Part shown: positions 3,319 to 57,874 of the stretch, piece after piece
Layout: the number at the start of each line of letters is the position of its first letter
Position numbering within the stretch: position 1 is the first letter of the stretch
Assembly (NCBI GenBank): GCA_020073105.1
Contig: JAIQFW010000002.1
Span: forward strand, 6,353-70,352
DNA: 64,000 nt
Origin: Terriglobia bacterium
GTDB taxonomy: Bacteria; Acidobacteriota; Terriglobia; Terriglobales; Acidobacteriaceae
Direction: 5' to 3'
Program-made: the position numbers and the translations under genes
The notes under the pieces: generated by a model
What the model saw: only the letters and a program-made list of their open reading frames with translations
Told to the model about the DNA's origin: nothing
The model's database searches: none

Positions 3319-4797
3319 ATGCCGGCCTCGCGCCGCGCCAAGATCATCTGCACCATCGGCCCCTCGTGCCACCATGAACCCGCCTTGCGCGACCTGATGC
3401 GGCTGGGCATGGACGTGGCCCGGCTCAACTTTTCGCACGGCACCCACAAGGATCACGGGCAGGTCATTGAGCGGCTACGCTTGGCTGCAAAGCACGAGAA
3501 GCGCACCATTTGCATCCTGCAGGACCTGCAAGGCCCTAAAATCCGCACCGGGCCGCTGACAGACCACGTTCCCGTCACGCTCAAGACCGGATCAAGGGTC
3601 ACGATCACCCCGCGCGAGATTGAAGGCACGGCGTCGCTGCTTTCAACCACGTTTCAGGGCTTGGCGCGAGAGGTCCAGCCGGGCGCCCGCATCCTGCTCT
3701 CCGATGGTTTGATCGAGCTCCGTGTCCTCCGCGTGCGCGGACGAGATGTGGAATGTAAGGTGGTCAACGGGGGCGAGCTTGGGGAGCACAAGGGCATCAA
3801 TCTGCCAGGAATCGCCCTTTCCATTCCCGCACTCACCGAGAAGGACCGTGCCGACCTCAAGTTCGGTCTCACACATGGCGTGGACGTGGTCGCGATGTCA
3901 TTCGTGCGCTCTGCGGCCGATGTCCGCATGGTGAAAGACGTCATTGCTAAGCACGGCAGCGACGTTCCCGTGATCGCCAAGCTGGAGAAGCCGCAGGCGC
4001 TGGAGAAACTGGAAGAGATTTTCGAAACAACCGACGGCGTCATGGTGGCACGCGGTGACTTGGGCGTCGAGATGCCGCCGGAAAAGGTCCCGGTCATTCA
4101 GAAGCACATCATCCGTCGCGCGGCGGAGTGGCGGAAGCCGGTGATTACGGCGACCCAGATGCTCGAATCCATGATCGAGAACCCGCGTCCCACGCGGGCA
4201 GAAGCCAGCGACGTGGCCAATGCCATCTTCGACGGCACCGATGCGGTCATGCTCTCTGCCGAAACCGCCAACGGGAGGTATCCTAGAGAGGCTGTGGCGA
4301 TGATGGCAAAGATCGTGGTCGAGGCCGAGCAGAACATGCGGGACTTCCTCCGGCGCCGCCGTGAACGGCACTCGCTCAGCATTGCCGAGACCATTTGCGA
4401 GTCCATTTCGCATGCCGCCGAAGATTTGCACATGGGTGCCATCGCCGTGTTCACCGACTCCGGAAATACCGCCCGCATGATTTCCAAGTACCGCCCCAAA
4501 GCCCGCATCTATGCCTTCAGCCGGACGCAGCCGGTTTGCAATCGCATGAACCTTCTCTGGGGTGTACAACCCCTGCGCCACGAAAAGGCACACAACGCTG
4601 ATGGCATGGTGGCCGCCGCTGAGCGAGAACTGCTTCGCCTTGGAAAAATCAAGGTTGGCGATGTGCTGGGCGTAGTGGCAGGTACGCAGATGGCATCGGG
4701 CTCGACCAATTTCATGAGGCTTCATGCGGTGACGGCGAAGGAGGCTCGATCAGCCGCACCCGGACGGAAACGCCGGATCACCTACAGGAAACGATAA
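3319..4797 (+). CDS. pyk: pyruvate kinase
   Basis: RRAKIICTIGPS, MDVARLNFSHG, IAKLEKPQA, MVARGDLGVE and TQMLESM motifs. Start moved to the internal ATG (MPASRRAKI). Confidence 0.93.
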   Translation: MPASRRAKIICTIGPSCHHEPALRDLMRLGMDVARLNFSHGTHKDHGQVIERLRLAAKHEKRTICILQDLQGPKIRTGPLTDHVPVTLKTGSRVTITPREIEGTASLLSTTFQGLAREVQPGARILLSDGLIELRVLRVRGRDVECKVVNGGELGEHKGINLPGIALSIPALTEKDRADLKFGLTHGVDVVAMSFVRSAADVRMVKDVIAKHGSDVPVIAKLEKPQALEKLEEIFETTDGVMVARGDLGVEMPPEKVPVIQKHIIRRAAEWRKPVITATQMLESMIENPRPTRAEASDVANAIFDGTDAVMLSAETANGRYPREAVAMMAKIVVEAEQNMRDFLRRRRERHSLSIAETICESISHAAEDLHMGAIAVFTDSGNTARMISKYRPKARIYAFSRTQPVCNRMNLLWGVQPLRHEKAHNADGMVAAAERELLRLGKIKVGDVLGVVAGTQMASGSTNFMRLHAVTAKEARSAAPGRKRRITYRKR

Positions 4798-4803
4798 CTG
4801 CGC

Positions 4804-5094
4804 ATGTCCCAAGAGATACTGTCCATCGCGATCTTTGAGCCCGTGGCGGGCAGTGAAGAGGCAGCGCTCGCCAGCATGAAGGACCTAACGGCGGCGCTCG
4901 CCCGTGGCGGCTACAGCCGGGATTCCTTGTATCGCGACGAGAAGTCCCACACCCAGTATGTGTTGCTGCGTTACTGGAAGTCGGAGGCGGCACGCCGCGC
5001 TGCCCTCGAAGATCCCGAGGTGCTGCGCTGCTGGGCACGGTTGGCGCACGAAGTCCGCATCCTGAAAGTCCTCGAAACGCTGGAAGAAATCTGA
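4804..5094 (+). CDS. small ABM (antibiotic biosynthesis monooxygenase)-like domain protein
   Basis: 96 aa. The pattern (IAIFEP..., YVLLRYWKSEAARRAA) resembles ABM/Dabb ferredoxin-like domains. Starts 6 nt after the pyk stop. Confidence 0.55.
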   Translation: MSQEILSIAIFEPVAGSEEAALASMKDLTAALARGGYSRDSLYRDEKSHTQYVLLRYWKSEAARRAALEDPEVLRCWARLAHEVRILKVLETLEEI

Positions 5095-14321: not shown

Positions 14322-14453
14322 TTTGGCTTGCGACCACGATAACTTGTCCTTCTGCCTATGACTGCCGTCCGCTAGTCCGTGTCTCTTGCGATCCTGCGCC
14401 GCAGTGTGCGCAATCGCTTCCCGTTTTCCACCAAAATCAGAGAGGATATTTCC

Positions 14454-15272
14454 ATGGACTTCGTGGATCAATCATTAGCTCGCCGCCTGGAATCGGCAGA
14501 GGAGATGCCGCAGGTGCACTACGCCAAGCTGTATCAGAAGCTGTGTCCTGAGATCGGTGCCGCGGTCGAGCCCATCTGTGGCGGACACATGATTTTTGCG
14601 GGAGTTGGATCGCCGATCGGGCGCACAACCGGCATGGGTTTCGACGGTTCGGCTACCGCCACCGACCTCGACCGCATGGAGGAGTTTTACCGGGCGCACA
14701 AGGCTCCTTCGCAAATTGACGTCTGCCCGCTCACCGACCCGTCGCTCCTCGAACTGCTCAAGCCCCGCCGCTACGAAATGGGCGAGTTGAACAACGTGCT
14801 GTTTCGCAAGCTGGACGGCGTGGATGCGGGCATGGCGCCTGCCGGAGCCACAATTCGCCAGGGGCAGGCCCAACGGGCCGAGGAGTTTGCCGACATCGTG
14901 GTACGCAGCTTCTTTCCTGACGGAGATGCTCCCGAGGGTTTCACCGCGATGATTTCTCCGATCTATCAGATTGACGGGGCAATCCTGTTCGTCGCAGAAA
15001 TTGACGGTAAGCCGGTGGCGTGTGGCGCCGGACTGATCATCCCGGAGCATCGAATCCTGGCGTTGTTCGGGGCCGGAACTCTGCCCGAGTTCCGGCGGCG
15101 CGGTTTGCAGACGGCGCTGCTCCGCAAGCGCATGGCGGTCGCAGCCAAGGCTGGCTGCGAGTACGCCGTGATCGTGACTCGGGGAGGAACCACTTCCCAG
15201 CACAATGCCGAACGTCTGGGCTTCCGCGTCGCCTATAGTAAAGCCACGCTGGTGAAAGAGCTAAGAGACTGA
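14454..15272 (+). CDS. GNAT-family N-acetyltransferase
   Basis: C-terminal RRRGLQTALLRKRMAVAAKAGCEYAV acetyl-CoA binding motif (R/Q-x-x-G-x-G/A). Start moved to the ATG with a GAGAGGA Shine-Dalgarno sequence. Confidence 0.75.
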   Translation: MDFVDQSLARRLESAEEMPQVHYAKLYQKLCPEIGAAVEPICGGHMIFAGVGSPIGRTTGMGFDGSATATDLDRMEEFYRAHKAPSQIDVCPLTDPSLLELLKPRRYEMGELNNVLFRKLDGVDAGMAPAGATIRQGQAQRAEEFADIVVRSFFPDGDAPEGFTAMISPIYQIDGAILFVAEIDGKPVACGAGLIIPEHRILALFGAGTLPEFRRRGLQTALLRKRMAVAAKAGCEYAVIVTRGGTTSQHNAERLGFRVAYSKATLVKELRD

Positions 15273-15762: not shown

Positions 15763-15831
15763 ATCCGCTATTGAGGGTTTCTCCGCGCCTTCTGCGGCTC
15801 TTCTCAGCGGTCTCTGCGTTAAGTGTTTGAC
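15719..15831. repeat. inverted pair of CTCTGYG-type units; left arm is coding
   Basis: AACGCAGAGGACGCCGAGTGCGCAGAG ... CTCCGCGCCTTCTGCGGCTCTTCTCAGCGGTCTCTGCGTTAAGTGTTTGAC. Confidence 0.85.
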
Positions 15832-15969
15832 CCTAATTTGACTCCCCCTCATCCCCTAAGCTAGCCTCAAGAGTCTGCCCAGGGCCTGCTTCCCGAGCCT
15901 GATCGCGGACGGATCAAGCTGCACCCGGCGTGACGGGCCAGACAGCCCGTTTCCCCAGTCCACGATTCC

Positions 15970-17727
15970 ATGCGATTCAACCGCAAGCCACTGATTCTGC
16001 TGCTTCTGGCGGCCCTGGTAGCCGCTGTCGCGCCGCTGCAGGGCTCGGTTCTTCCAGCCCATGCCCCCCATGCCATGGTGGCCAGTGTTCATGGGCTGGC
16101 TTCGCAGGCAGGTGTCGAGATCATGAAGGCGGGAGGTAACGCGGTGGACGCCGCAGTGGCCATCGGCTTCGCGCTCGCCGTCGTTCATCCTCAAGCGGGC
16201 AACCTCGGCGGCGGCGGATTCATGCTCATCCGCATGGCCGACGGCAAGACCCACTTCATCGACTACCGCGAGAAAGCTCCCGCGGCCGCCACCGCCAATA
16301 TGTACCTGGACGCCCAGGGCAACGTAATCGAGAATGCCAGCGTTGTCGGGTATCGTGCCATCGCTGTCCCCGGGTCGGTTGCGGGCATGGTTTACGTCGA
16401 GAAGAAGTACGGCAAGCTGACCCTCGACCGCGTAATGGCCCCGGCCATCAACTTGGCCCGCGGCTTCCCGCTGGCCTGGGAAGACGCCCGGGATCTCCAG
16501 CAGGACGAGGATCTCGCCAGGTTCCCCGAATCGCGCCGCATCTTTCAGCGAGGTGGGAATTACTACAAGCAGGGAGGGATTTTCCGCCAGCCAGACTTGG
16601 CGCGAACTCTGGAGCGCATTGCCGCCAATCCGGACGAGTTCTACCACGGGGCCATGGCACGTGAACTGGCGGCTTCCATTCAGAAAGGCGGCGGTCTCAT
16701 CACCCAGGACGATCTTGCACGCTACGAAGTGAAGGAACGCGAGCCCGTCCGCGGCACCTATCGCGGGTACGAGATTATCAGCGCTCCTCCACCGTCCTCG
16801 GGTGGAACCGCGCTGCTTGAGATACTCAACATCCTGGAAGGGTACGATCTGGCGAAAGCTGGCAATCGGTCATCCGAATCAGTCCACCTCACGGTCGAGG
16901 CATTCCGTCGCGCCTTCTACGATCGGGCCGAATTTATGGGTGATCCCGATTTTTCCAAACTTCCAGTTGCCCAACTCATTGACAAGAAATATGGCGTAGC
17001 CTGGAGGGAATCACTCGACCCGGCGCACGCCAGTGTCAGCAAAGACCTGAAGCGTCCTGCGATCTTCAACGAGCTGGAACAGTATGCTTCTCAGCATGCG
17101 CAACCCATGGCGGTGCCGGAACCGGAGCACACCACGCACTACTCGGTGGTGGACGCCGCCGGCAATGCGGTTGCCGTCACCACCACGCTGAACGACGATT
17201 TCGGTTCGCGCGTGACCGCCGAAGGGCTTGGCTTCCTCTTGAACGACGAGATGGACGATTTCTCCGCCAAGCCGGGCGTCCCTAATCTCTATGGCTTGAT
17301 TCAGGGCCCGGCGAACGCCATCGGTCCCGGCAAACGGCCCCTGTCGGCGATGACCCCAACGATTGTCCTGAAAGACGATAAGCTATTCCTGGTGCTCGGT
17401 TCGCCGGGCGGGTCAAAAATCATCACGACGGTCGCGAATATCCTGATGGGCGTAGTGGATTTCGGCATGAACATTCAGGAAGCTGTGGAAGCGCCACGTT
17501 TCCATCACCAGTGGCTGCCGGATAAGGTGAATGTGGAACAATGGTTCTCGCCGGACACCGTGAAGGCGCTCGAGGCCAAGGGACACCACGTCGAACGGGG
17601 AGTCACCGTGGGAGCAGAGTGGGAGCCCTACTGGAGCGACGGCGAGTGTGTCGCGATTGACCAGAAGACCGGCGAGCGCCTGGGCGCCAGCGACGGCAGA
17701 CACAACGGAAAGGCGATTGGCTACTAA
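15970..17727 (+). CDS. ggt: gamma-glutamyltransferase
   Basis: Signal peptide. MVAS.H.LASQAGVEIMKAGGNAVDAAVA. Autoprocessing site EHTTHYSVVD. GSPGGSKIIT. Confidence 0.93.
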   Translation: MRFNRKPLILLLLAALVAAVAPLQGSVLPAHAPHAMVASVHGLASQAGVEIMKAGGNAVDAAVAIGFALAVVHPQAGNLGGGGFMLIRMADGKTHFIDYREKAPAAATANMYLDAQGNVIENASVVGYRAIAVPGSVAGMVYVEKKYGKLTLDRVMAPAINLARGFPLAWEDARDLQQDEDLARFPESRRIFQRGGNYYKQGGIFRQPDLARTLERIAANPDEFYHGAMARELAASIQKGGGLITQDDLARYEVKEREPVRGTYRGYEIISAPPPSSGGTALLEILNILEGYDLAKAGNRSSESVHLTVEAFRRAFYDRAEFMGDPDFSKLPVAQLIDKKYGVAWRESLDPAHASVSKDLKRPAIFNELEQYASQHAQPMAVPEPEHTTHYSVVDAAGNAVAVTTTLNDDFGSRVTAEGLGFLLNDEMDDFSAKPGVPNLYGLIQGPANAIGPGKRPLSAMTPTIVLKDDKLFLVLGSPGGSKIITTVANILMGVVDFGMNIQEAVEAPRFHHQWLPDKVNVEQWFSPDTVKALEAKGHHVERGVTVGAEWEPYWSDGECVAIDQKTGERLGASDGRHNGKAIGY

Positions 17728-18548
17728 TGCTGAAAGCAATTTCTACTTATGTTTATGTGAAGGAACGGCTGCATCCCGGGCTGCTGGACGGCTTGGTGAA
17801 GGGTGGCGCTCAGGCGATTGAGATCTTTGCCGCGCGCCAGCATCTGGACTATGCCAACCGCAAGCAGCACGTTCGGGAAATTGCCGACTGGTTCCGCGCC
17901 AGCGGCGTCCCCCTGCATTCCGTGCATGCGCCGCTCTATGCCGATTATGAGTGGGGACGCGCGGGAGCGCCGCCGGTCAACATCACCTCCACCGACCGGG
18001 CCACCCGAATCGAAGCTATGGACGAGATCAAGCGCGCCCTGGAGATCGCCGAGCAGATTCCATTCCGCTTCCTGGTGCAGCACATGGGAGTGGGCGGAGA
18101 ATCGTTCGATGACAACAAATTCGAGGCTGCGATGACCTCCATCGAGCATCTGCGAGCATTCGCCCGGCCGCTGGGAGTGCGCATTCTGCTGGAGAACATT
18201 CCCAACGAGATCTGCACTCCGGAAAGACTCGTGGAGTTCATTCACACCTCGCACTTCGACGACGTCGGAGTGTGCTTCGACTTTGGCCACGCCCACATCA
18301 TGAGCGACGTGCCCCAGGCCTTCGAGACCGTGAAGAAGTACGTCCAGTCGACACATGTCCACGACAACGCCAAGGACCGCGATTCGCACCTCTGGCCGGG
18401 CGATGGGTCGATCGACTGGAAGCAGGCCATGGAATTGCTGCGTTCGGCGCCGCACACCCCGCCATTGCTGCTGGAGATTGAGGAGAACGAGAAGATCAAT
18501 CCGGCAGAGAAGATGGGAGCAGTGTTCGAGAAGCTGGAGAGATCATAA
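17727..18548 (+). CDS. sugar phosphate isomerase/epimerase (xylose isomerase-like TIM barrel)
   Basis: LHSVHAP, LLENIPNE, FDFGHAH and HVHDN metal-ligand pattern. TAATG overlap with ggt. Confidence 0.8.
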   Translation: MLKAISTYVYVKERLHPGLLDGLVKGGAQAIEIFAARQHLDYANRKQHVREIADWFRASGVPLHSVHAPLYADYEWGRAGAPPVNITSTDRATRIEAMDEIKRALEIAEQIPFRFLVQHMGVGGESFDDNKFEAAMTSIEHLRAFARPLGVRILLENIPNEICTPERLVEFIHTSHFDDVGVCFDFGHAHIMSDVPQAFETVKKYVQSTHVHDNAKDRDSHLWPGDGSIDWKQAMELLRSAPHTPPLLLEIEENEKINPAEKMGAVFEKLERS

Positions 18549-27121: not shown

Positions 27122-27234
27122 CAGACCTTGGATTTCATGCAGAGTGGCTGAGGGACGAGCCCTAAGAAGCCACGACAACCGGATCGGGAGTCATCTCCCG
27201 GTCGCCCGGTGTCAACTCTCTCCTGGAAACGGGG
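27122..27234 (+). promoter_or_regulatory. SAM-I (S-box) riboswitch aptamer
   Basis: P1 ATTTCATG/CATGAGAT. Conserved blocks in canonical order: CAGAG, TGGCTGAGGGA, GAGCCC, AAGAAGCC, GACAACC, GC-rich P3 hairpin, GGTGTCAACTC, P4 CTCC-TGGAAAC-GGGG. Confidence 0.85.
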
Positions 27235-27361
27235 AACATGAGATTCGAGGTGCCGAATTTCCAGCATCTCGTTGACCTCTTTTCCCGTTTTTCCTTCCGA
27301 GAGACTTTTGACACACTAGGTTTTCGACGCTCGTCCCGGAGCCATCGGAAATGAGTGGCCG

Positions 27362-28624
27362 ATGAGTTACGAATTGCGTTGCCGGGAATGCGGCAAGAGT
27401 TGGGGAAACCAGCCCCTTTCGATCTGTGAGGATTGCTTTTCTCCCCTCGAAGTTGCGTACGACTACGAGTGGCTGCGCGGCCCGGTGACGCGCGAGCGCA
27501 TCTCCGCGCGCGCTCCCAACATGTGGCGTTATGCGGAGTTGCTGCCGCTGCCGCAGAATTTCCGGCTCACCGTCCCTGCCGGTTTTACCCCACTGCTGCC
27601 GGCGCCGCGTCTCGCGCAAAGTCTGGGTGCGAAGACGCTGCTGCTCAAAAACGATGCGGTCTGTTTGCCCTCCCTTAGCTTCAAAGACCGCGTCGTGGCA
27701 GTGGCTTTGGCGCAAGCCAGAAATTTCGGCTTCGACACCGTGGCCTGCTCCTCCACGGGGAACCTGGCCAACGCCGTAGCGGCGCAAGCAGCGCGCAACG
27801 GATTGAAAGCCTGGATATTCATCCCCGCCGACCTCGAACCCGCCAAGATTCTCGGCACGCAAGTCTTCGGGGCGAAAGTAGTTCGCATCGCGGGCAGCTA
27901 CGACCAGGTGAACCGCCTCTGCTCGCAGATCGCGGACGAACACCCATGGGGATTCGTGAACGTCAACCTGCGCCCCTACTACGCCGAGGGCTCAAAGACC
28001 GTGGGTTTCGAAATCGCCGAGCAACTGGGCTGGCGCCTGCCAGACAATGTGGTAGTTCCCATGGCGGGCGGATCGCTGATCACGAAAATCAAGAAGGCAT
28101 TCGACGAGTTGGTTTTGTTGGGACTGGTTGAGCCGAAGCCGGTCAAGATCTTCGGCGCACAAGCCACGGGTTGCTCTCCGATCTCAACCGCGGTGAAGGC
28201 AGGGAACGCGGAGATCGAGCCGCAGAAACCGGCGACACTCGCGCGCTCGCTGGCCATCGGCAATCCTGCCGACGGCCACTACGCCATCAAGACCATCCGC
28301 AGCAGCGGCGGCTGGGCCGAGGACATTTCCGATCCCGAGGTCGTTGAGTCCATCCAGCTTCTCGCCCAGACCGAGGGTGTCTTTACCGAGACCGCCGGTG
28401 GAGTCACCGTCGGCTGCGCCCGCAAGCTCTACCAGCAGGGCCGCATTCGTCCGGACGAGACCACCGTGCTCTGCATCACCGGGAACGGTTTGAAGACCAC
28501 CGACATCTTTGCCGGTAAGTATGAAGCCGAGGAGCCAATTCGCCCCAAGATGGCGGACTTTGCGGCTCGGCTGGAAAGAACGTTGGAGCCCCAGCGGCCC
28601 ATTCAAGAATCTGTGGAGGCATGA
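27362..28624 (+). CDS. threonine synthase-family PLP enzyme with N-terminal zinc ribbon (candidate MetM-type homocysteine synthase)
   Basis: CRECG...CEDC ribbon and PSLSFKDRV PLP-lysine motif; 420 aa. Preceded by a SAM riboswitch and followed at 1 nt by a sulfur-carrier gene. Confidence 0.88.
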   Translation: MSYELRCRECGKSWGNQPLSICEDCFSPLEVAYDYEWLRGPVTRERISARAPNMWRYAELLPLPQNFRLTVPAGFTPLLPAPRLAQSLGAKTLLLKNDAVCLPSLSFKDRVVAVALAQARNFGFDTVACSSTGNLANAVAAQAARNGLKAWIFIPADLEPAKILGTQVFGAKVVRIAGSYDQVNRLCSQIADEHPWGFVNVNLRPYYAEGSKTVGFEIAEQLGWRLPDNVVVPMAGGSLITKIKKAFDELVLLGLVEPKPVKIFGAQATGCSPISTAVKAGNAEIEPQKPATLARSLAIGNPADGHYAIKTIRSSGGWAEDISDPEVVESIQLLAQTEGVFTETAGGVTVGCARKLYQQGRIRPDETTVLCITGNGLKTTDIFAGKYEAEEPIRPKMADFAARLERTLEPQRPIQESVEA

Positions 28625-28625
28625 C

Positions 28626-28928
28626 ATGACGGTAACCATCCAAATTCCCAGCGCACTGCGCCGCCACACCGGTGGGGCGGGCAAGGTGACTTGCTCGCCC
28701 GCCAACCTGACCGAGTTGTTCTCCGTGCTCGATCAGCAGTTCCCCGAACTCAAGCCGCACCTGCGCGATGAGGCTGGCGAAGTCCGCCGCTTTCTCAACG
28801 TGTATGTGAACGAGGAAGACATCCGCTTCCTAGGCGGGAACAGCTACGCCTTTCAGGATGGGGATGAAGTGCTACTGGTGCCGTCGATCGCTGGGGGAGC
28901 TTCTTGCCTGCCACAGACGCAGCGATAA
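28626..28928 (+). CDS. MoaD/ThiS-family sulfur-carrier protein with C-terminal extension after Gly-Gly
   Basis: 100 aa. FLNVYVNEEDIRFLGG...GDEVLLVPSIAGG followed by ASCLPQTQR. GGAGG lies 5 nt upstream of the ATG. Confidence 0.85.
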   Translation: MTVTIQIPSALRRHTGGAGKVTCSPANLTELFSVLDQQFPELKPHLRDEAGEVRRFLNVYVNEEDIRFLGGNSYAFQDGDEVLLVPSIAGGASCLPQTQR

Positions 28929-30751: not shown

Positions 30752-30933
30752 CTGAAATCCATTTGGCATGGGAGCGGTGAGATCCGCGGCTTACGAAAGG
30801 TGTACGTGAACGAGGTGGACATTCGTTTCCTCGGTCATCTGTTCTCCCACTGAGCATCGCCGTCCCGGCCATCCAACCCAGTTCCAGGCCGCAGTTACCG
30901 TCCTTTGAAACCACCACCTGCCCGCACTCGTAA
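30752..30933 (+). pseudogene. decayed MoaD/ThiS-like sulfur-carrier gene fragment
   Basis: LKSIWHGSGEIRGLRKVYVNEVDIRFLGH then a stop. In a different frame, PSFETTTCPHS-stop. Nucleotide core GTGTACGTGAACGAGGTGGACATTCGTTTCCTCGG versus GTGTATGTGAACGAGGAAGACATCCGCTTCCTAGG at about 28800. Confidence 0.5.
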
Positions 30934-54508: not shown

Positions 54509-54542
54509 GGAGACCTGAGACCTGAATCCTGAGACCTGACCC
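54509..54542. repeat. tandem CCTGAGAC-like repeats
   Basis: GGAGACCTGAGACCTGAATCCTGAGACCTGACCC abuts the stop of the minus-strand E1 gene. Confidence 0.8.
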
Positions 54543-55714
54543 TAGTACTTCGCCATCTTGGGATCCACCCGGTCCGCCCAGGCCAGTATCCCCCCCGCCA
54601 AGTTATGGACTTTCTTGAACCCCGCCTGTTGCAGGAACCCGACCGCCTTCCCGCTGCGCACGCCGGAGCGGCAGTGGGCCACGATCTCGCGGCTGGAATC
54701 CAGTTCGCTCACTCGCTTGGGCAGATCGCCCAGCGGGATCAGGTACCCGCCGATGTTGCAGATCTGGTATTCGTGCGGCTCGCGCACGTCCAGCACAAAC
54801 AGGTCGTCGCCTGCATCGAGGCGCCGCTTGAGTTCTTCGACTTGCATCTCGGGAATGCCTGCTTCCACGGGCTTCTCCTCACCGCGAATTCCGCAAAACT
54901 CGTTGTAGTCTATCAGTTTTGTGATGGTGCGATGCGTGCCGCAAGCCGGGCAGTCGGGGTTCTTGCGCAGCCTTAACTCGCGGAACTTCATGCCGAGCGC
55001 GTCTACGAGCAGTAACCGTCCGATCAGCGGCTCGCCTGTGCCCAGGATGAGCTTGATCACTTCCGTAGCCTGAATCACGCCAACCAGCCCCGGCAGGATC
55101 CCCAGTACCCCACCTTCCGCGCAGGAGGGCACCAGCCCCGGCGGTGGTGGCTCCGGATACAGGCAGCGATAGCAAGGGCCTTCCTCCGTAGCAAATACGC
55201 TGGCCTGTCCCTCGAAGCGGAAAATCGATCCATACACATTAGGCTTACCGCTGAGCACGCACGCGTCGTTCACCAGATAGCGCGTGGGGAAATTATCGGT
55301 TCCATCTGCGATGATGTCGAACTCCCGGAACAGTTCCAGTGCATTCTCGCTGGTCAGCTTGGTCTCGAACGTCCGGATATTCAGGAAGGGATTGATCGCT
55401 TTCAGCTTCTCCGCCGCAGAGTCCAGTTTCTTGCGGCCCACATCGGCCGTCGTGTGAATGATCTGGCGCTGCAGATTCGTATAGTCCACCACATCGAAGT
55501 CCACGATCCCGAGTGTCCCCACCCCAGCCGCACCCAGATAGAGCGCCAGCGGCGAACCCAGTCCACCCGCGCCGATGCACAACACACGTGCCGCCTTGAG
55601 TTTTTGCTGCCCCTCCATGCCTACCTCAGGCATGATCAGGTGGCGCGAGTAGCGCAGAATTTCGTCGTTATTCAGAACGGCGGTTGCGGGTTTGGTTTCG
55701 GTAATGGTGGCCAT
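54542..55714 (-). CDS. moeZ: MoeB/ThiF-family E1-like adenylyltransferase fused to a rhodanese domain (MoeZ type)
   Basis: CIGAGGLGSPLALYLGAAGVG nucleotide loop, CYRC...C zinc site, C-terminal rhodanese with HCRSGVRS active-site loop. Confidence 0.9.
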   Translation of the reverse strand: MATITETKPATAVLNNDEILRYSRHLIMPEVGMEGQQKLKAARVLCIGAGGLGSPLALYLGAAGVGTLGIVDFDVVDYTNLQRQIIHTTADVGRKKLDSAAEKLKAINPFLNIRTFETKLTSENALELFREFDIIADGTDNFPTRYLVNDACVLSGKPNVYGSIFRFEGQASVFATEEGPCYRCLYPEPPPPGLVPSCAEGGVLGILPGLVGVIQATEVIKLILGTGEPLIGRLLLVDALGMKFRELRLRKNPDCPACGTHRTITKLIDYNEFCGIRGEEKPVEAGIPEMQVEELKRRLDAGDDLFVLDVREPHEYQICNIGGYLIPLGDLPKRVSELDSSREIVAHCRSGVRSGKAVGFLQQAGFKKVHNLAGGILAWADRVDPKMAKY

Positions 55715-55821
55715 GGGAACCTCGGTGAATTTGCAATTAAAGGATTGCCGATTGGCGAATCAACAACAGCCGCAGGAGTGGCAACAGCGACGCATGGTAG
55801 GTTTGGTTGGGCAATCGCAAA

Positions 55822-56115
55822 TCATGAAATCGTCAATCCCGCTGCGCCTCCGGCGATGGAAGGCACAATCGAAATAGTATCACTGTCCTTGACCGCGGTG
55901 GCCTCTTTCTGCAGGTAGCGGACATCTTCGTCGTTCAGATAGACATTCACAAAAGCCCGCAGTTTGCCTTCGTCGGTGTAGAGATGGCGGCGCAGGTCGG
56001 GGTGCTTCGAGATCAAGCCGGAAAGGGCATCGCCGATCGTGCCGGCCTTGATCTCGATTGTGGCCTGCTTGCCGGCGTATTGGCGTAGCGGCGTGGGGAT
56101 GTGGATCTTGGTCAT
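55822..56115 (-). CDS. MoaD/ThiS-family sulfur-carrier protein (CysO-like) with extension after Gly-Gly
   Basis: 97 aa from MTKIHIPTPL. FVNVYLNDEDVRYL...ISIVPSIAGG followed by AAGLTIS. Confidence 0.85.
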   Translation of the reverse strand: MTKIHIPTPLRQYAGKQATIEIKAGTIGDALSGLISKHPDLRRHLYTDEGKLRAFVNVYLNDEDVRYLQKEATAVKDSDTISIVPSIAGGAAGLTIS

Positions 56116-56170
56116 ACGGTTAGATGATGCACCGGCGTTGACCGAAGATTCAACATTGCCCCCCACAGTC

Positions 56171-56232
56171 TTGTCATCCCGAGCGGAGCTGCTGGTTCGC
56201 TTGCGAACCAGATGCGGAGTCGAGGGATCTGC
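56171..56232 (+). repeat. TCATCCCGAGC...TCGAGGGATCTGC element (forward copy)
   Basis: TTGTCATCCCGAGCGGAGCTGCTGGTTCGCTTGCGAACCAGATGCGGAGTCGAGGGATCTGC in the JAMM/carrier spacer. Confidence 0.85.
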
Positions 56233-56273
56233 TGTTTGCCGGCAGGGGCCACGGACACCGCTCAGAATTCCAG

Positions 56274-56331
56274 CAGATTCCTCGACACGTCCTCGGCGCA
56301 TCCTGCGCCTGCGGACGGCTCGGAATGGCAA
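56274..56331 (-). repeat. same element, reverse copy
   Basis: GCAGATTCCTCGACACGTCCTCGGCGCATCCTGCGCCTGCGGACGGCTCGGAATGGCAA. Confidence 0.85.
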
Positions 56332-56350
56332 ACTACGAAAGGATGTAGGA

Positions 56351-56377
56351 ACCGCGGGCAGGAATGCCCGCGCTACA
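56351..56377. repeat. hairpin element ACCGCGGGCAGGAATGCCCGCGCTACA
   Basis: GCGGGCA-GGAA-TGCCCGC stem-loop, third structured element in the JAMM/carrier spacer. Confidence 0.6.
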
Positions 56378-56382
56378 CCCGC

Positions 56383-56814
56383 TCAAGTTACCTTGATCTC
56401 CTCCTCTACCAGCTTCTTATCGTTCTCCTCACTCCCCACCAGCTCAAACGAATTCGTCACCGCCGCCTTGCCTTTCTCCACGCTGGTGATCACATAGGAG
56501 CAGCCGATCCAATGCGCCTCGGCGAGGTCGGTCGGGGACCAACGCGGCGGATGATCGGGATGAGAGTGATAAAAGCCGACGATGTCCTCTCCACGCTCGC
56601 GCCCTTCCCGCTGAATGCGGATCAACTCGCGGGGGTCGATGTTATAGCGGTTGTGCGGCGAATCACTTCGCGTATTTCCGCAACGCGCCACCGACGTCAC
56701 GATTCGCGCGTCCCCGTCCATCTGCCCCAGCAACACTCCGCAGCACTCATGGGGATAGGTGTCCTCGCCGTGCTGACGAAGGGCGTCGTAGTGCGATTGG
56801 CCGATTTTCAACAT
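56383..56814 (-). CDS. JAMM/MPN+ metalloprotease (Mec-like)
   Basis: HECCGVLLG and GFYHSHPDHPPRWSPTD (HxHx7Sx2D). Start moved to MLKIG because the upstream codons lie in a repeat. Confidence 0.88.
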   Translation of the reverse strand: MLKIGQSHYDALRQHGEDTYPHECCGVLLGQMDGDARIVTSVARCGNTRSDSPHNRYNIDPRELIRIQREGRERGEDIVGFYHSHPDHPPRWSPTDLAEAHWIGCSYVITSVEKGKAAVTNSFELVGSEENDKKLVEEEIKVT

Positions 56815-56823
56815 ACCCCAGAA

Positions 56824-56902
56824 CCCACCACAGAGCCACAGAGGCACAGAGAACAAGAGAATTGGAATCCTCTGTGTACTCTGTGCCCTCTGTGGTAAAG
56901 AC
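56824..56902. repeat. inverted pair of CTCTGYG-type units filling the cysteine synthase / JAMM spacer
   Basis: CCCACCACAGAGCCACAGAGGCACAGAGAAC ... ATCCTCTGTGTACTCTGTGCCCTCTGTGGTAAAGAC. Confidence 0.88.
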
Positions 56903-57874
56903 TTACCCTTCCTCCCAGAATCTCTCGCTCAGATACTTGTCCCCGGAATCCGGCAGGATGGTCACAAACACGCCAGTTTCGTTCTTCTTGAGCTGCCGCG
57001 CCAGCTGCACACACCCAGCGACGGCGGCCGCCGCGGAAACGCCCACCAGCAGTCCCTCTTCGCGCGCCAAACGCTTGGCCATCGCATAAGCGTCCTCGGT
57101 GGCAATGCCCACGTCAGCATCCGCCAGCGACGTGTCGTAGATTTTCGGCACGATCGCCGTAGCCATGTGCTTGGCGCCTTCGATGCCGTGAAACGGAGAA
57201 TCTGGCTGCAGCGAGATGCAGCGCACGCGAGGGTTCAATTCTTTCAAGCGCCGCGCCGTGCCCACGAACGTGCCGCTGGTTCCCAACATGGAAACGAAGT
57301 GGGTGATACGTCCTTCCGTCTGTTGCCAGATTTCGTTGGCTGTGCCATGGTAGTGAGCCAGCCAGTTGGCGTCGTTGGAATACTGGTCGGCGTAGAAGTA
57401 GAGTTCAGGATGCTTGGCGGCGAGTTCGCGGGCCAGGCGGATCGCGCCATCGGAGCCCTCGTCCGGATCGGTATAAAGGATATTCGCGCCGTAGGCGTGC
57501 AGAATACGTTTGCGCTCGATGGAAACATTCTCCGGCATGCACAGCGTAACCGGAAAATTCAGCGCGGCGCCGATCATGGCGTAGGCAATGCCGGTGTTTC
57601 CGCTGGTGGAGTCGAGCAGAATTTTACCGGATGTTAACTTGCCACTGGCGCGAGCTTGAGCGACGATGTTGGCCGCGGCCCGGTCCTTGACCGAGCCTCC
57701 GGGATTGAACCACTCGGCTTTGCCGAGAATCTCGGCGGCGGGCAACTCCTGGGCAATGCGCCCCAGTCGCAGCAACGGGGTGTTGCCAATCCGGTCCAGA
57801 CTCCGCTCACCTAGACTGGCTTGATGTGCTGGAGGAATAGACACTTGCACCGATTTTCGCGAGGTGCCTGACAT
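56903..57874 (-). CDS. cysteine synthase-family PLP enzyme (CysM/CysK-like)
   Basis: IGNTPLLRL, NPGGSVKDRAA (PLP lysine), and SGNTGIAYA. Confidence 0.9.
   Translation of the reverse strand: MSGTSRKSVQVSIPPAHQASLGERSLDRIGNTPLLRLGRIAQELPAAEILGKAEWFNPGGSVKDRAAANIVAQARASGKLTSGKILLDSTSGNTGIAYAMIGAALNFPVTLCMPENVSIERKRILHAYGANILYTDPDEGSDGAIRLARELAAKHPELYFYADQYSNDANWLAHYHGTANEIWQQTEGRITHFVSMLGTSGTFVGTARRLKELNPRVRCISLQPDSPFHGIEGAKHMATAIVPKIYDTSLADADVGIATEDAYAMAKRLAREEGLLVGVSAAAAVAGCVQLARQLKKNETGVFVTILPDSGDKYLSERFWEEG

Follow-up and report, generated by a model that had tools for sequence, protein, structure and literature searches.

The window analysed here is a 64,000-nt stretch of a contig from a Terriglobia bacterium (JAIQFW010000002.1, assembly GCA_020073105.1), and the locus in question is a run of minus-strand genes at 54542-57874 which resembles the mycobacterial system for making cysteine from a protein-bound thiocarboxylate. 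Between its carrier gene and the gene of the enzyme that would activate the carrier lies a short open reading frame (sORF) rich in cysteine codons, the second main subject of this study. In the order in which they would be transcribed, the features are the following.

56903-57874, minus strand: CysM/CysK-type pyridoxal phosphate (PLP) enzyme, 323 amino acids (aa), with the lysine motif SVKDR; presumed carrier-thiocarboxylate-dependent cysteine synthase.
56383-56814, minus strand: Mec-like zinc protease of the JAMM/MPN+ type, 143 aa (Prok-JAB, 89 bits), with HECCG...HSHPDHPPRWSPTD.
55822-56115, minus strand: carrier A, a CysO-like protein of ThiS/MoaD fold, 97 aa (ThiS, 48 bits), with the C-terminus PSIAGG-AAGLTIS.
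55825-55760, minus strand: longer polycysteine frame, MICDCPTKPTMRRCCHSCGCC then stop, 21 codons; its ATG overlaps the TGA stop of carrier A (ATGA), and an inner ATG gives the sORF of the next line.
55760-55795, minus strand: polycysteine sORF, MRRCCHSCGCC then stop, 11 codons, between carrier A and E1; its stop is 45 nt before the E1 start.
54542-55714, minus strand: MoeZ/MoeB-type E1 adenylyltransferase with a rhodanese domain, 390 aa (ThiF, 286 bits; Rhodanese, 58 bits).

An earlier reading, made from the letters of this DNA without database searches (hereafter the sequence-only reading), had described four co-directional minus-strand genes here and had likened them to mec-cysO-cysM plus moeZ of Mycobacterium tuberculosis. 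Both statements held: all four genes are present where it had placed them, with matching domains and motifs, and the gene set and order fit. The glutamate and the HxHx7SxxD signature required of a JAMM protease are supplied by HECCG and HSHPDHPPRWSPTD, and the top match of this protein in the Protein Data Bank (PDB) is 2kcq. The E1-rhodanese protein carries GAGGLGSP, CYRC/CPAC and the rhodanese loop HCRSGVRS, and scores 547 bits with NF005646 (MoeB) and 511 bits with NF005902 (MoeZ), the latter under the MoeZ equivalog cut-off of 647. The PLP enzyme scores 232 bits with PALP and 354 bits with TIGR01138 (cysM), under the cut-off of 394. Over residues 4-90 (87 residues), carrier A can be aligned with CysO of M. 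tuberculosis (3dwg_C), and the solved structures closest to it are CysO itself and 4n6e_B, a bacterial protein of the ThiS/MoaD family. The CysO chain in 3DWG terminates at Gly-Gly, as the sequence-only reading had it; in carrier A seven residues follow, and its Gly-Gly would become terminal only after processing. On this gene content, the locus is a predicted protein-thiocarboxylate cysteine operon made of cysM-like, mec-like (JAMM), cysO-like and moeZ-like (E1-rhodanese) genes. Palindromic repeats (CACAGAG arms and GC-rich hairpins) fill two of its minus-strand spacers, 56815-56902 between the cysM-like and JAMM genes and 56116-56382 between the JAMM and carrier genes, and the longest open reading frame of the JAMM gene begins within one of these elements.

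The tail region of carrier A turned out to be described incompletely in the sequence-only reading, which had missed the adjoining conserved polycysteine sORF; this element alters what the tail region is. Defining a polycysteine stretch as at least 4 Cys in 10 residues, we found that the 30 closest family loci have one in this place in 26 cases, and 27 further unfused loci in 11 (37/57 together). Over 80 named loci the count was 54, as a separate sORF in 48 and as an in-frame tail of the carrier in 6, and about half of the other 26 keep three cysteines. These 80 loci all come from metagenome-assembled genomes, assigned to Terriglobales, Acidobacteriaceae or Candidatus Sulfotelmatobacter with few other labels (2 Dormiibacterota, 1 Verrucomicrobiia). 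By chance, 1.4% of random 135-nt segments of the present genome reach the threshold and 0.17% reach 5 Cys. The typical form is MRCCCCCPSCC. The frame of the sORF relative to the carrier and E1 genes, its length and its fusion state all vary from locus to locus, and what stays constant is a run of Cys codons ending 0-2 codons before the stop. In an alignment of 23 loci read in the Cys frame, entropy was lowest at second codon positions (0.25), intermediate at first (0.64) and highest at third (0.97), which is a coding pattern. Because in-frame carrier tails carry the same stretch, the Cys frame is most likely translated. No promoter-like site was found upstream of the sORF, which is internal to the operon and so is not a leaderless first reading frame; a polycysteine leader was also looked for upstream of the cysM-like gene, and none was found there. 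In some Sulfotelmatobacter-type loci (a subset of L107-L123), though not in others, a conserved element of about 45 nt (AACCACTAAGGGCACGAAGGTACACGAAGGAAA) which looks like a small repeat is inserted in the spacer between the sORF and E1.

Two other polycysteine leaders were detected in the same genome. A first genome-wide scan was swamped by out-of-frame matches in coding sequence. A filtered scan left 15 candidates, of which only the one in the window and one on contig C137 were convincing; a further one, on contig C28, was picked out by eye from the first scan. The C137 element (14396-14610) consists of the leader frame MIFASRQIGCRCCSCCCTGPSSGAGRLLT, with its stop (MIFASRQIGCRCCSCCC...), followed by a perfect intrinsic terminator, CCACCCAUCGCCAG...CUGGCGGUGGG and a U-run, placed immediately before a sulfite-reductase-like gene, which was named by eye from its sequence and not by means of a family library. 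Its CGCCAG and CUGGCG segments could pair alternatively, that is, act as an antiterminator. For the reductase gene to start, the frame apparently has to shift close to a GC-rich run, which may reflect a mistake in the assembly. The C28 element (4772-4846, minus strand) is the sORF MRAIANSAPCDSCRLCCCR, with its stop, 61 nt upstream of a cysK paralogue; judged by eye, the Cys codons UGUUGUUGU have their complement in GCAGCAGGAG, a stretch that precedes the start of cysK.

The sequence-only reading had reported residues after Gly-Gly on both carriers of the window, and this was borne out: seven on carrier A (AAGLTIS) and nine (ASCLPQTQR) on carrier B, a second carrier whose gene is presented below. 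To see how general such tails are, the 120 closest relatives of each carrier were surveyed. The tails range from 1 to 52 residues in the clade. Gly-Gly is not terminal in any of the 120 relatives of carrier A: a single residue, mostly Arg, follows it in 69, a seven-residue tail of the form xxGL[KRQT]I[SL] like that of the window in about 17, and a tail of 16-52 residues terminating in cysteine runs in about 20. Among the relatives of carrier B, 78 of 120 have two extra residues (AS being the commonest) and 2 of 120 end at Gly-Gly. Thirteen family genomes (loci L043-L055) encode carrier and MoeZ-type E1 as one in-frame fusion, joined by an Ala/Pro/Glu-rich linker of 10-40 residues devoid of polycysteine, with the JAMM gene just upstream. 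Since tails are nearly universal among the relatives, proteolytic exposure of Gly-Gly appears to be a general need in this clade.

The second carrier gene lies 26 kb from the cysteine locus, on the plus strand, in the following group.

27132-27244, plus strand: S-adenosylmethionine (SAM)-I riboswitch; full-length match to RF00162, 67 bits (gathering score 44.4), E = 1.9e-13.
27362-28624, plus strand: ThrC-family PLP enzyme with an N-terminal Cys4 ribbon, 420 aa (PALP, 224 bits; PRK08197, 290 bits); candidate MetM-like homocysteine synthase.
28626-28928, plus strand: carrier B, a MetO-like protein of ThiS/MoaD fold, 100 aa (ThiS, 44 bits), with the C-terminus PSIAGG-ASCLPQTQR.

The riboswitch lies directly upstream of the ThrC-like gene and was the sole match of an Rfam scan of the whole window, which found none at the cysteine locus. 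The carrier B gene follows the ThrC-like gene immediately, and the two carriers are 38% identical. This arrangement, a ThrC-like gene and a carrier behind a SAM-I riboswitch, matches the MetM/MetO route to homocysteine. Two further ThrC paralogues (contigs C30 and C304) are 33-34% identical to the MetM-like enzyme. Downstream, at 30780-30850 (plus strand), is the relic of a third carrier gene, IRGLRKVYVNEVDIRFLGHLFSH then stop, of which 52 nt are about 77% identical to the carrier B gene.

According to the sequence-only reading, a single JAMM and a single E1 would serve both carriers and thereby link the sulfur supply of cysteine and methionine. Its first half concerns gene numbers, and we examined it in the complete source assembly (labelled G000; 308 contigs, 97.6% complete). 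The window itself has a single JAMM and a single E1. A genome-wide profile search found the window JAMM as the only Prok-JAB protein above the cut-off, and the window E1 as the only genomic E1 bearing a sulfurtransferase (rhodanese) domain. That part of the claim stands; to call this the only E1 is too strong, the ThiF profile having retrieved several other genes. Contig C37 encodes a stand-alone 341-aa MoeB/ThiF-type protein (PRK12475-type, 348 bits) which has neither a rhodanese domain nor a carrier nearby. A second PRK12475-type ThiF/MoeB gene is represented at C201:9291-9400 (plus strand) by its first 35 codons, after which the contig breaks off; the assembly lacks the remainder, which leaves the E1 census incomplete. 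Contig C125 carries the ThiF of a PRTRC system (TIGR03736, 262 bits); at 15817-18447 (minus strand) this gene is followed by co-directional neighbours which suggest a mobile-element cassette, family models having been applied to the ThiF gene alone. At the start of contig C95 (124-1519, plus strand), a JAB-like gene (HSHP...SASD) overlaps an E1-like gene. This pair was considered as a second processing system and set aside: with 20 bits its JAB protein does not reach the Prok-JAB cut-off, its E1 is similar to defence-type E1-E2 proteins and there is no carrier in the vicinity. None of the extra ThiF-family genes on these four contigs adjoins a ThiS-family gene, and genome-wide no other E1/JAMM pair was found beside a carrier.

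The ThiS family has four members in this genome: carriers A and B, a 66-aa ThiS ending at Gly-Gly (contig C232) and a MoaD-MoaE fusion (contig C216). The fusion (C216:16986-17738, minus strand, 250 aa) has the internal sequence ...PPVSGG/VGPTAAD, the stroke marking the point after Gly-Gly where cleavage would be needed. In M. tuberculosis the fused MoaX undergoes cleavage after Gly82, a step to which no protease has yet been assigned (PMC4326299). By analogy, the single JAMM is a candidate protease for the MoaD-MoaE protein, which would be a possible third client.

The gene census was then extended to 151 genomes of the same family, representing 142 genera. A MoeZ-type E1, 61-94% identical to that of the window, was found in 138 of them, as a single copy in all but one (the remaining two-hit cases are split genes), and a Prok-JAB protein in 148, about 117 of which have exactly one by a tally made by hand. 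Carriers of the A/B family occur in 124 genomes. At least two are present in 71, about 59 of these having exactly one JAMM. Of the 13 genomes devoid of MoeZ, 10 are also devoid of carriers and the other 3 are 74-82% complete. Three genomes (G010, G039 and G091) have no cysO or cysM beside the pair, yet their JAMM and moeZ genes are adjacent; in G010, the only one checked for this, metM-metO is on another contig and is 68% and 56% identical to the pair of the window. The one-JAMM/one-E1 census and these patterns of co-occurrence agree with the expectation for a shared hub. A single protease and a single E1 per genome thus appear to be the conserved state, even in the presence of several carriers, of carrier-E1 fusions and of a MoaD-MoaE fusion needing processing. 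The second half of the claim, the Cys/Met hub, is therefore supported by the gene set, the tails and the genome and family censuses, and is not proven, other E1 genes being present; most likely, as judged from these gene patterns, maturation and charging of the MetO-like carrier encoded by the metM/metO pair also fall to this JAMM and this E1.

The reading which best accounts for all the above combines a cysteine operon, a shared JAMM/E1 hub and a polycysteine sORF acting as a sensor; we put its probability at roughly 0.65. Every step of the mechanism is borrowed from homologous systems. The JAMM protease would remove the residues after Gly-Gly, the E1 would adenylate the exposed glycine and the rhodanese cysteine would supply the sulfur, giving a carrier thiocarboxylate (carrier-COSH). 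The PLP enzyme would take this carrier-COSH as its sulfide donor, and the JAMM protease would finally free the cysteine from the carrier. The translated sORF would sense charged Cys-tRNA by ribosome pausing and set the expression of the downstream E1 gene. That the sORF is such a translated, Cys-tRNA-sensing regulatory frame is, taken by itself, a proposition we accept by a narrow margin. The cysteine-sensor reading is favoured because the same genome has leaders before the sulfite reductase and cysK genes and because mycobacterial attenuators provide a precedent. A bolder version, on which we would not bet but which we think deserves mention, is that in this Terriglobales clade the residues after Gly-Gly are more than a pro-peptide and belong to a cysteine sensor, read by the ribosome within the operon, which sets the level of the one E1 feeding cysteine, methionine and perhaps molybdopterin, and that in the fused lineages one JAMM cut both matures the carrier and detaches the sensor peptide. 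If true, a single sequence element would tie the maturation of a ubiquitin-fold sulfur carrier to its regulation.

Several results weigh against parts of this explanation, and most of them concern the way in which the sORF might act. Base-pair probabilities computed for 30 loci gave an unpaired fraction of about 0.4 at the ribosome-binding site of E1, similar to that of shuffled controls, and for these 30 loci the accessibility of the site did not rise when a ribosome-sized mask covered either the Cys codons or the stop of the sORF. Duplex energies between the Cys tract and the ribosome-binding site of E1 were no better than those of shuffled sequences (mean z of +0.65, 37 loci). Ribosome-binding-site sequestration of the mycobacterial type is thus unsupported by the accessibility and duplex tests, though not disproved, such thermodynamic models of RNA accessibility and pairing being crude. 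The search for an intrinsic terminator between the sORF and E1 gave only a 5-bp hairpin inside the sORF, which is at chance level. In addition, some relatives tolerate a spacer insertion of about 60 nt, and the motif C-C-C-P-[SA]-C-C is conserved beyond the need of a pure codon sensor; it could serve ribosome arrest, and it fits a functional peptide equally well. On the side of the enzymes, the matches of the PLP enzyme in the PDB (220 bits for M. tuberculosis CysK1, 218 for E. coli CysM, 175 for M. tuberculosis CysM) place it, by sequence, no nearer to M. tuberculosis CysM than to ordinary CysK/CysM. As to the hub, the patterns found are correlative, and they are compatible with a C37-type E1 as an alternative activator. 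One structural candidate was dropped: a long helix between the tail region and the spacer has z values of -3.3 to -4 in L016, L023, L025 and L030, with a z of -0.9 in the window and a mean z of -0.9, and is not claimed as a specific structure; its GAUUG/CAAUC arms resemble repeats found elsewhere in the genome (C223).

The negative sequestration tests and the variable spacer can also be taken as arguments that the polycysteine frame is not a sensor at all, being either functionless or the gene of a functional Cys-rich peptide, such as a metal- or persulfide-binding partner in sulfur relay or, when fused to the carrier, a redox-sensitive pro-peptide. The conservation of M-R-C-C-C-(C)-P-[SA]-C-C, frequently with a terminal Arg, at the amino-acid level and with synonymous variation agrees with a peptide function. 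Across fused and unfused forms and changes of frame and length, however, only the Cys run near the stop is retained, the two other leaders of this genome precede sulfite reductase (with a terminator) and cysK, and the experimental precedent for such frames is regulatory, so that we regard the peptide alternative as unlikely, if well short of negligible. The family models open another question, whether the cluster is mainly a cysteine pathway: SAMP1 is the sole NCBIfam model that carrier A passes (61.1 bits, cut-off 60), the JAMM protein scores highest with the model of the haloarchaeal desampylase (94 bits, where 130 would be needed) and the E1 also gives 346 bits with that of the SAMP-activating E1, short of its cut-off of 450. 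The genes might then carry out ubiquitin-like conjugation and deconjugation of the SAMP type, with the JAMM as the deconjugase, or donate sulfur to some other thio-metabolite. The presence of a CysM/CysK-type gene at the head of the cluster, in an order found in many relatives, argues otherwise, as do the two solved structures nearest to the carrier, the polycysteine sORFs that mark cysteine genes in this genome and the absence of an E2-like gene; such a role seems to us very improbable.

The shared hub itself can be questioned with the same censuses that support it. The MoeZ-type E1 and the JAMM could serve the CysO-like carrier only, with the C37 enzyme or its C201 paralogue activating the MetO-like carrier, ThiS and MoaD, and with another peptidase trimming carrier B. 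The full-length and partial ThiF/MoeB-type genes that this division of labour requires do exist, and those of C37 and C201 could charge any of carrier B, ThiS or MoaD; carrier B is, moreover, encoded 26 kb from the E1 and JAMM genes in a separately regulated operon, and the tails of its relatives, mostly of two residues, are poorly conserved. Against these points, the C37 E1 is devoid of a rhodanese domain and of a nearby carrier, carriers and MoeZ co-occur across the family, and genomes with only the MetO-type carrier retain the JAMM-moeZ pair. There is also a precedent for sharing: MetO, MetM, Mec and MoeZ are listed as experimentally supported steps in Streptomyces in Table 2 of the GapMind 2026 paper (PMC13759103), which cites Hasebe et al. 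2024 for them, MoeZ and Mec thus acting in the MetO pathway. Separate charging of the two carriers accordingly appears quite unlikely, and we retain the shared JAMM/E1 hub.

In M. tuberculosis, CysM is specific for O-phosphoserine, and a dual role has been reported for MoeZR (PMC3227635). The system to which both belong, Mec+/CysO/CysM/MoeZR, comprises the same four protein types as the present locus: a Gly-Gly carrier, a PLP enzyme of the CysM/CysK family, a JAMM protein with the E...HxHx7SxxD motif and an E1-rhodanese. The two differ in that the E1 gene is here inside the operon, that the carrier has seven residues past the Gly-Gly at which CysO ends, that the PLP enzyme is no nearer to the mycobacterial CysM than to CysK1 or to the E. 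coli CysM, and that a polycysteine sORF lies between carrier and E1. For the tails, the closest parallels are HcyS-Ala/HcyD of Wolinella succinogenes and QbsE-CF/QbsD of Pseudomonas fluorescens, in which tailed carriers are trimmed by a JAMM protease before adenylation. There, and probably here as well, residues after Gly-Gly need removal before adenylation, and in both cases a JAMM gene is in the cluster, whereas the tails of the present clade are longer and far more variable (1-52 residues) and, in part of the clade, contain a polycysteine stretch.

The methionine side has its counterpart in Streptomyces albulus, whose metM carries a SAM riboswitch (PMC12172450). As far as the cited sources describe that system, a ThrC-family enzyme is in both cases found beside a ThiS-family carrier behind a SAM riboswitch, with the protease and the E1 encoded elsewhere and, here probably, common with the cysteine system; the present case differs by its host, a member of the Acidobacteriota (Terriglobales), and by the nine-residue tail of carrier B. 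The link between cysteine and methionine through a shared protease and E1 is therefore a known design, here in another phylum, and with the proposed hub a pathway familiar from Actinobacteria would reach abundant, uncultured Acidobacteriota of soil and peat, including relatives of Candidatus Sulfotelmatobacter.

The sORF, for its part, is to be compared with the leaderless polycysteine sORFs of mycobacteria, which act as cysteine-responsive attenuators (Canestrari et al., bioRxiv 10.1101/834739). Likeness lies in a short frame with a Cys run which immediately precedes, on the same strand, a gene of sulfur or cysteine metabolism, and in the presence of several such elements per genome. In contrast to the mycobacterial ones, the element described here lies within an operon, shares nucleotides with the stop codon of the gene before it and, in some relatives, is joined to the carrier past the protease cleavage site; besides, no pairing with the downstream ribosome-binding site was found for it in silico. 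To conclude, the pathway is known and is here placed in a new phylum, and what is new is the operon-internal, sometimes carrier-fused polycysteine frame. Cysteine-sensing leader frames have been shown experimentally only in mycobacteria so far. This element is a more useful lead than the hub. Its natural variants (separate, overlapping, fused or absent) offer a simple set for studying how ribosome pausing on Cys codons relates to the control of a downstream gene.

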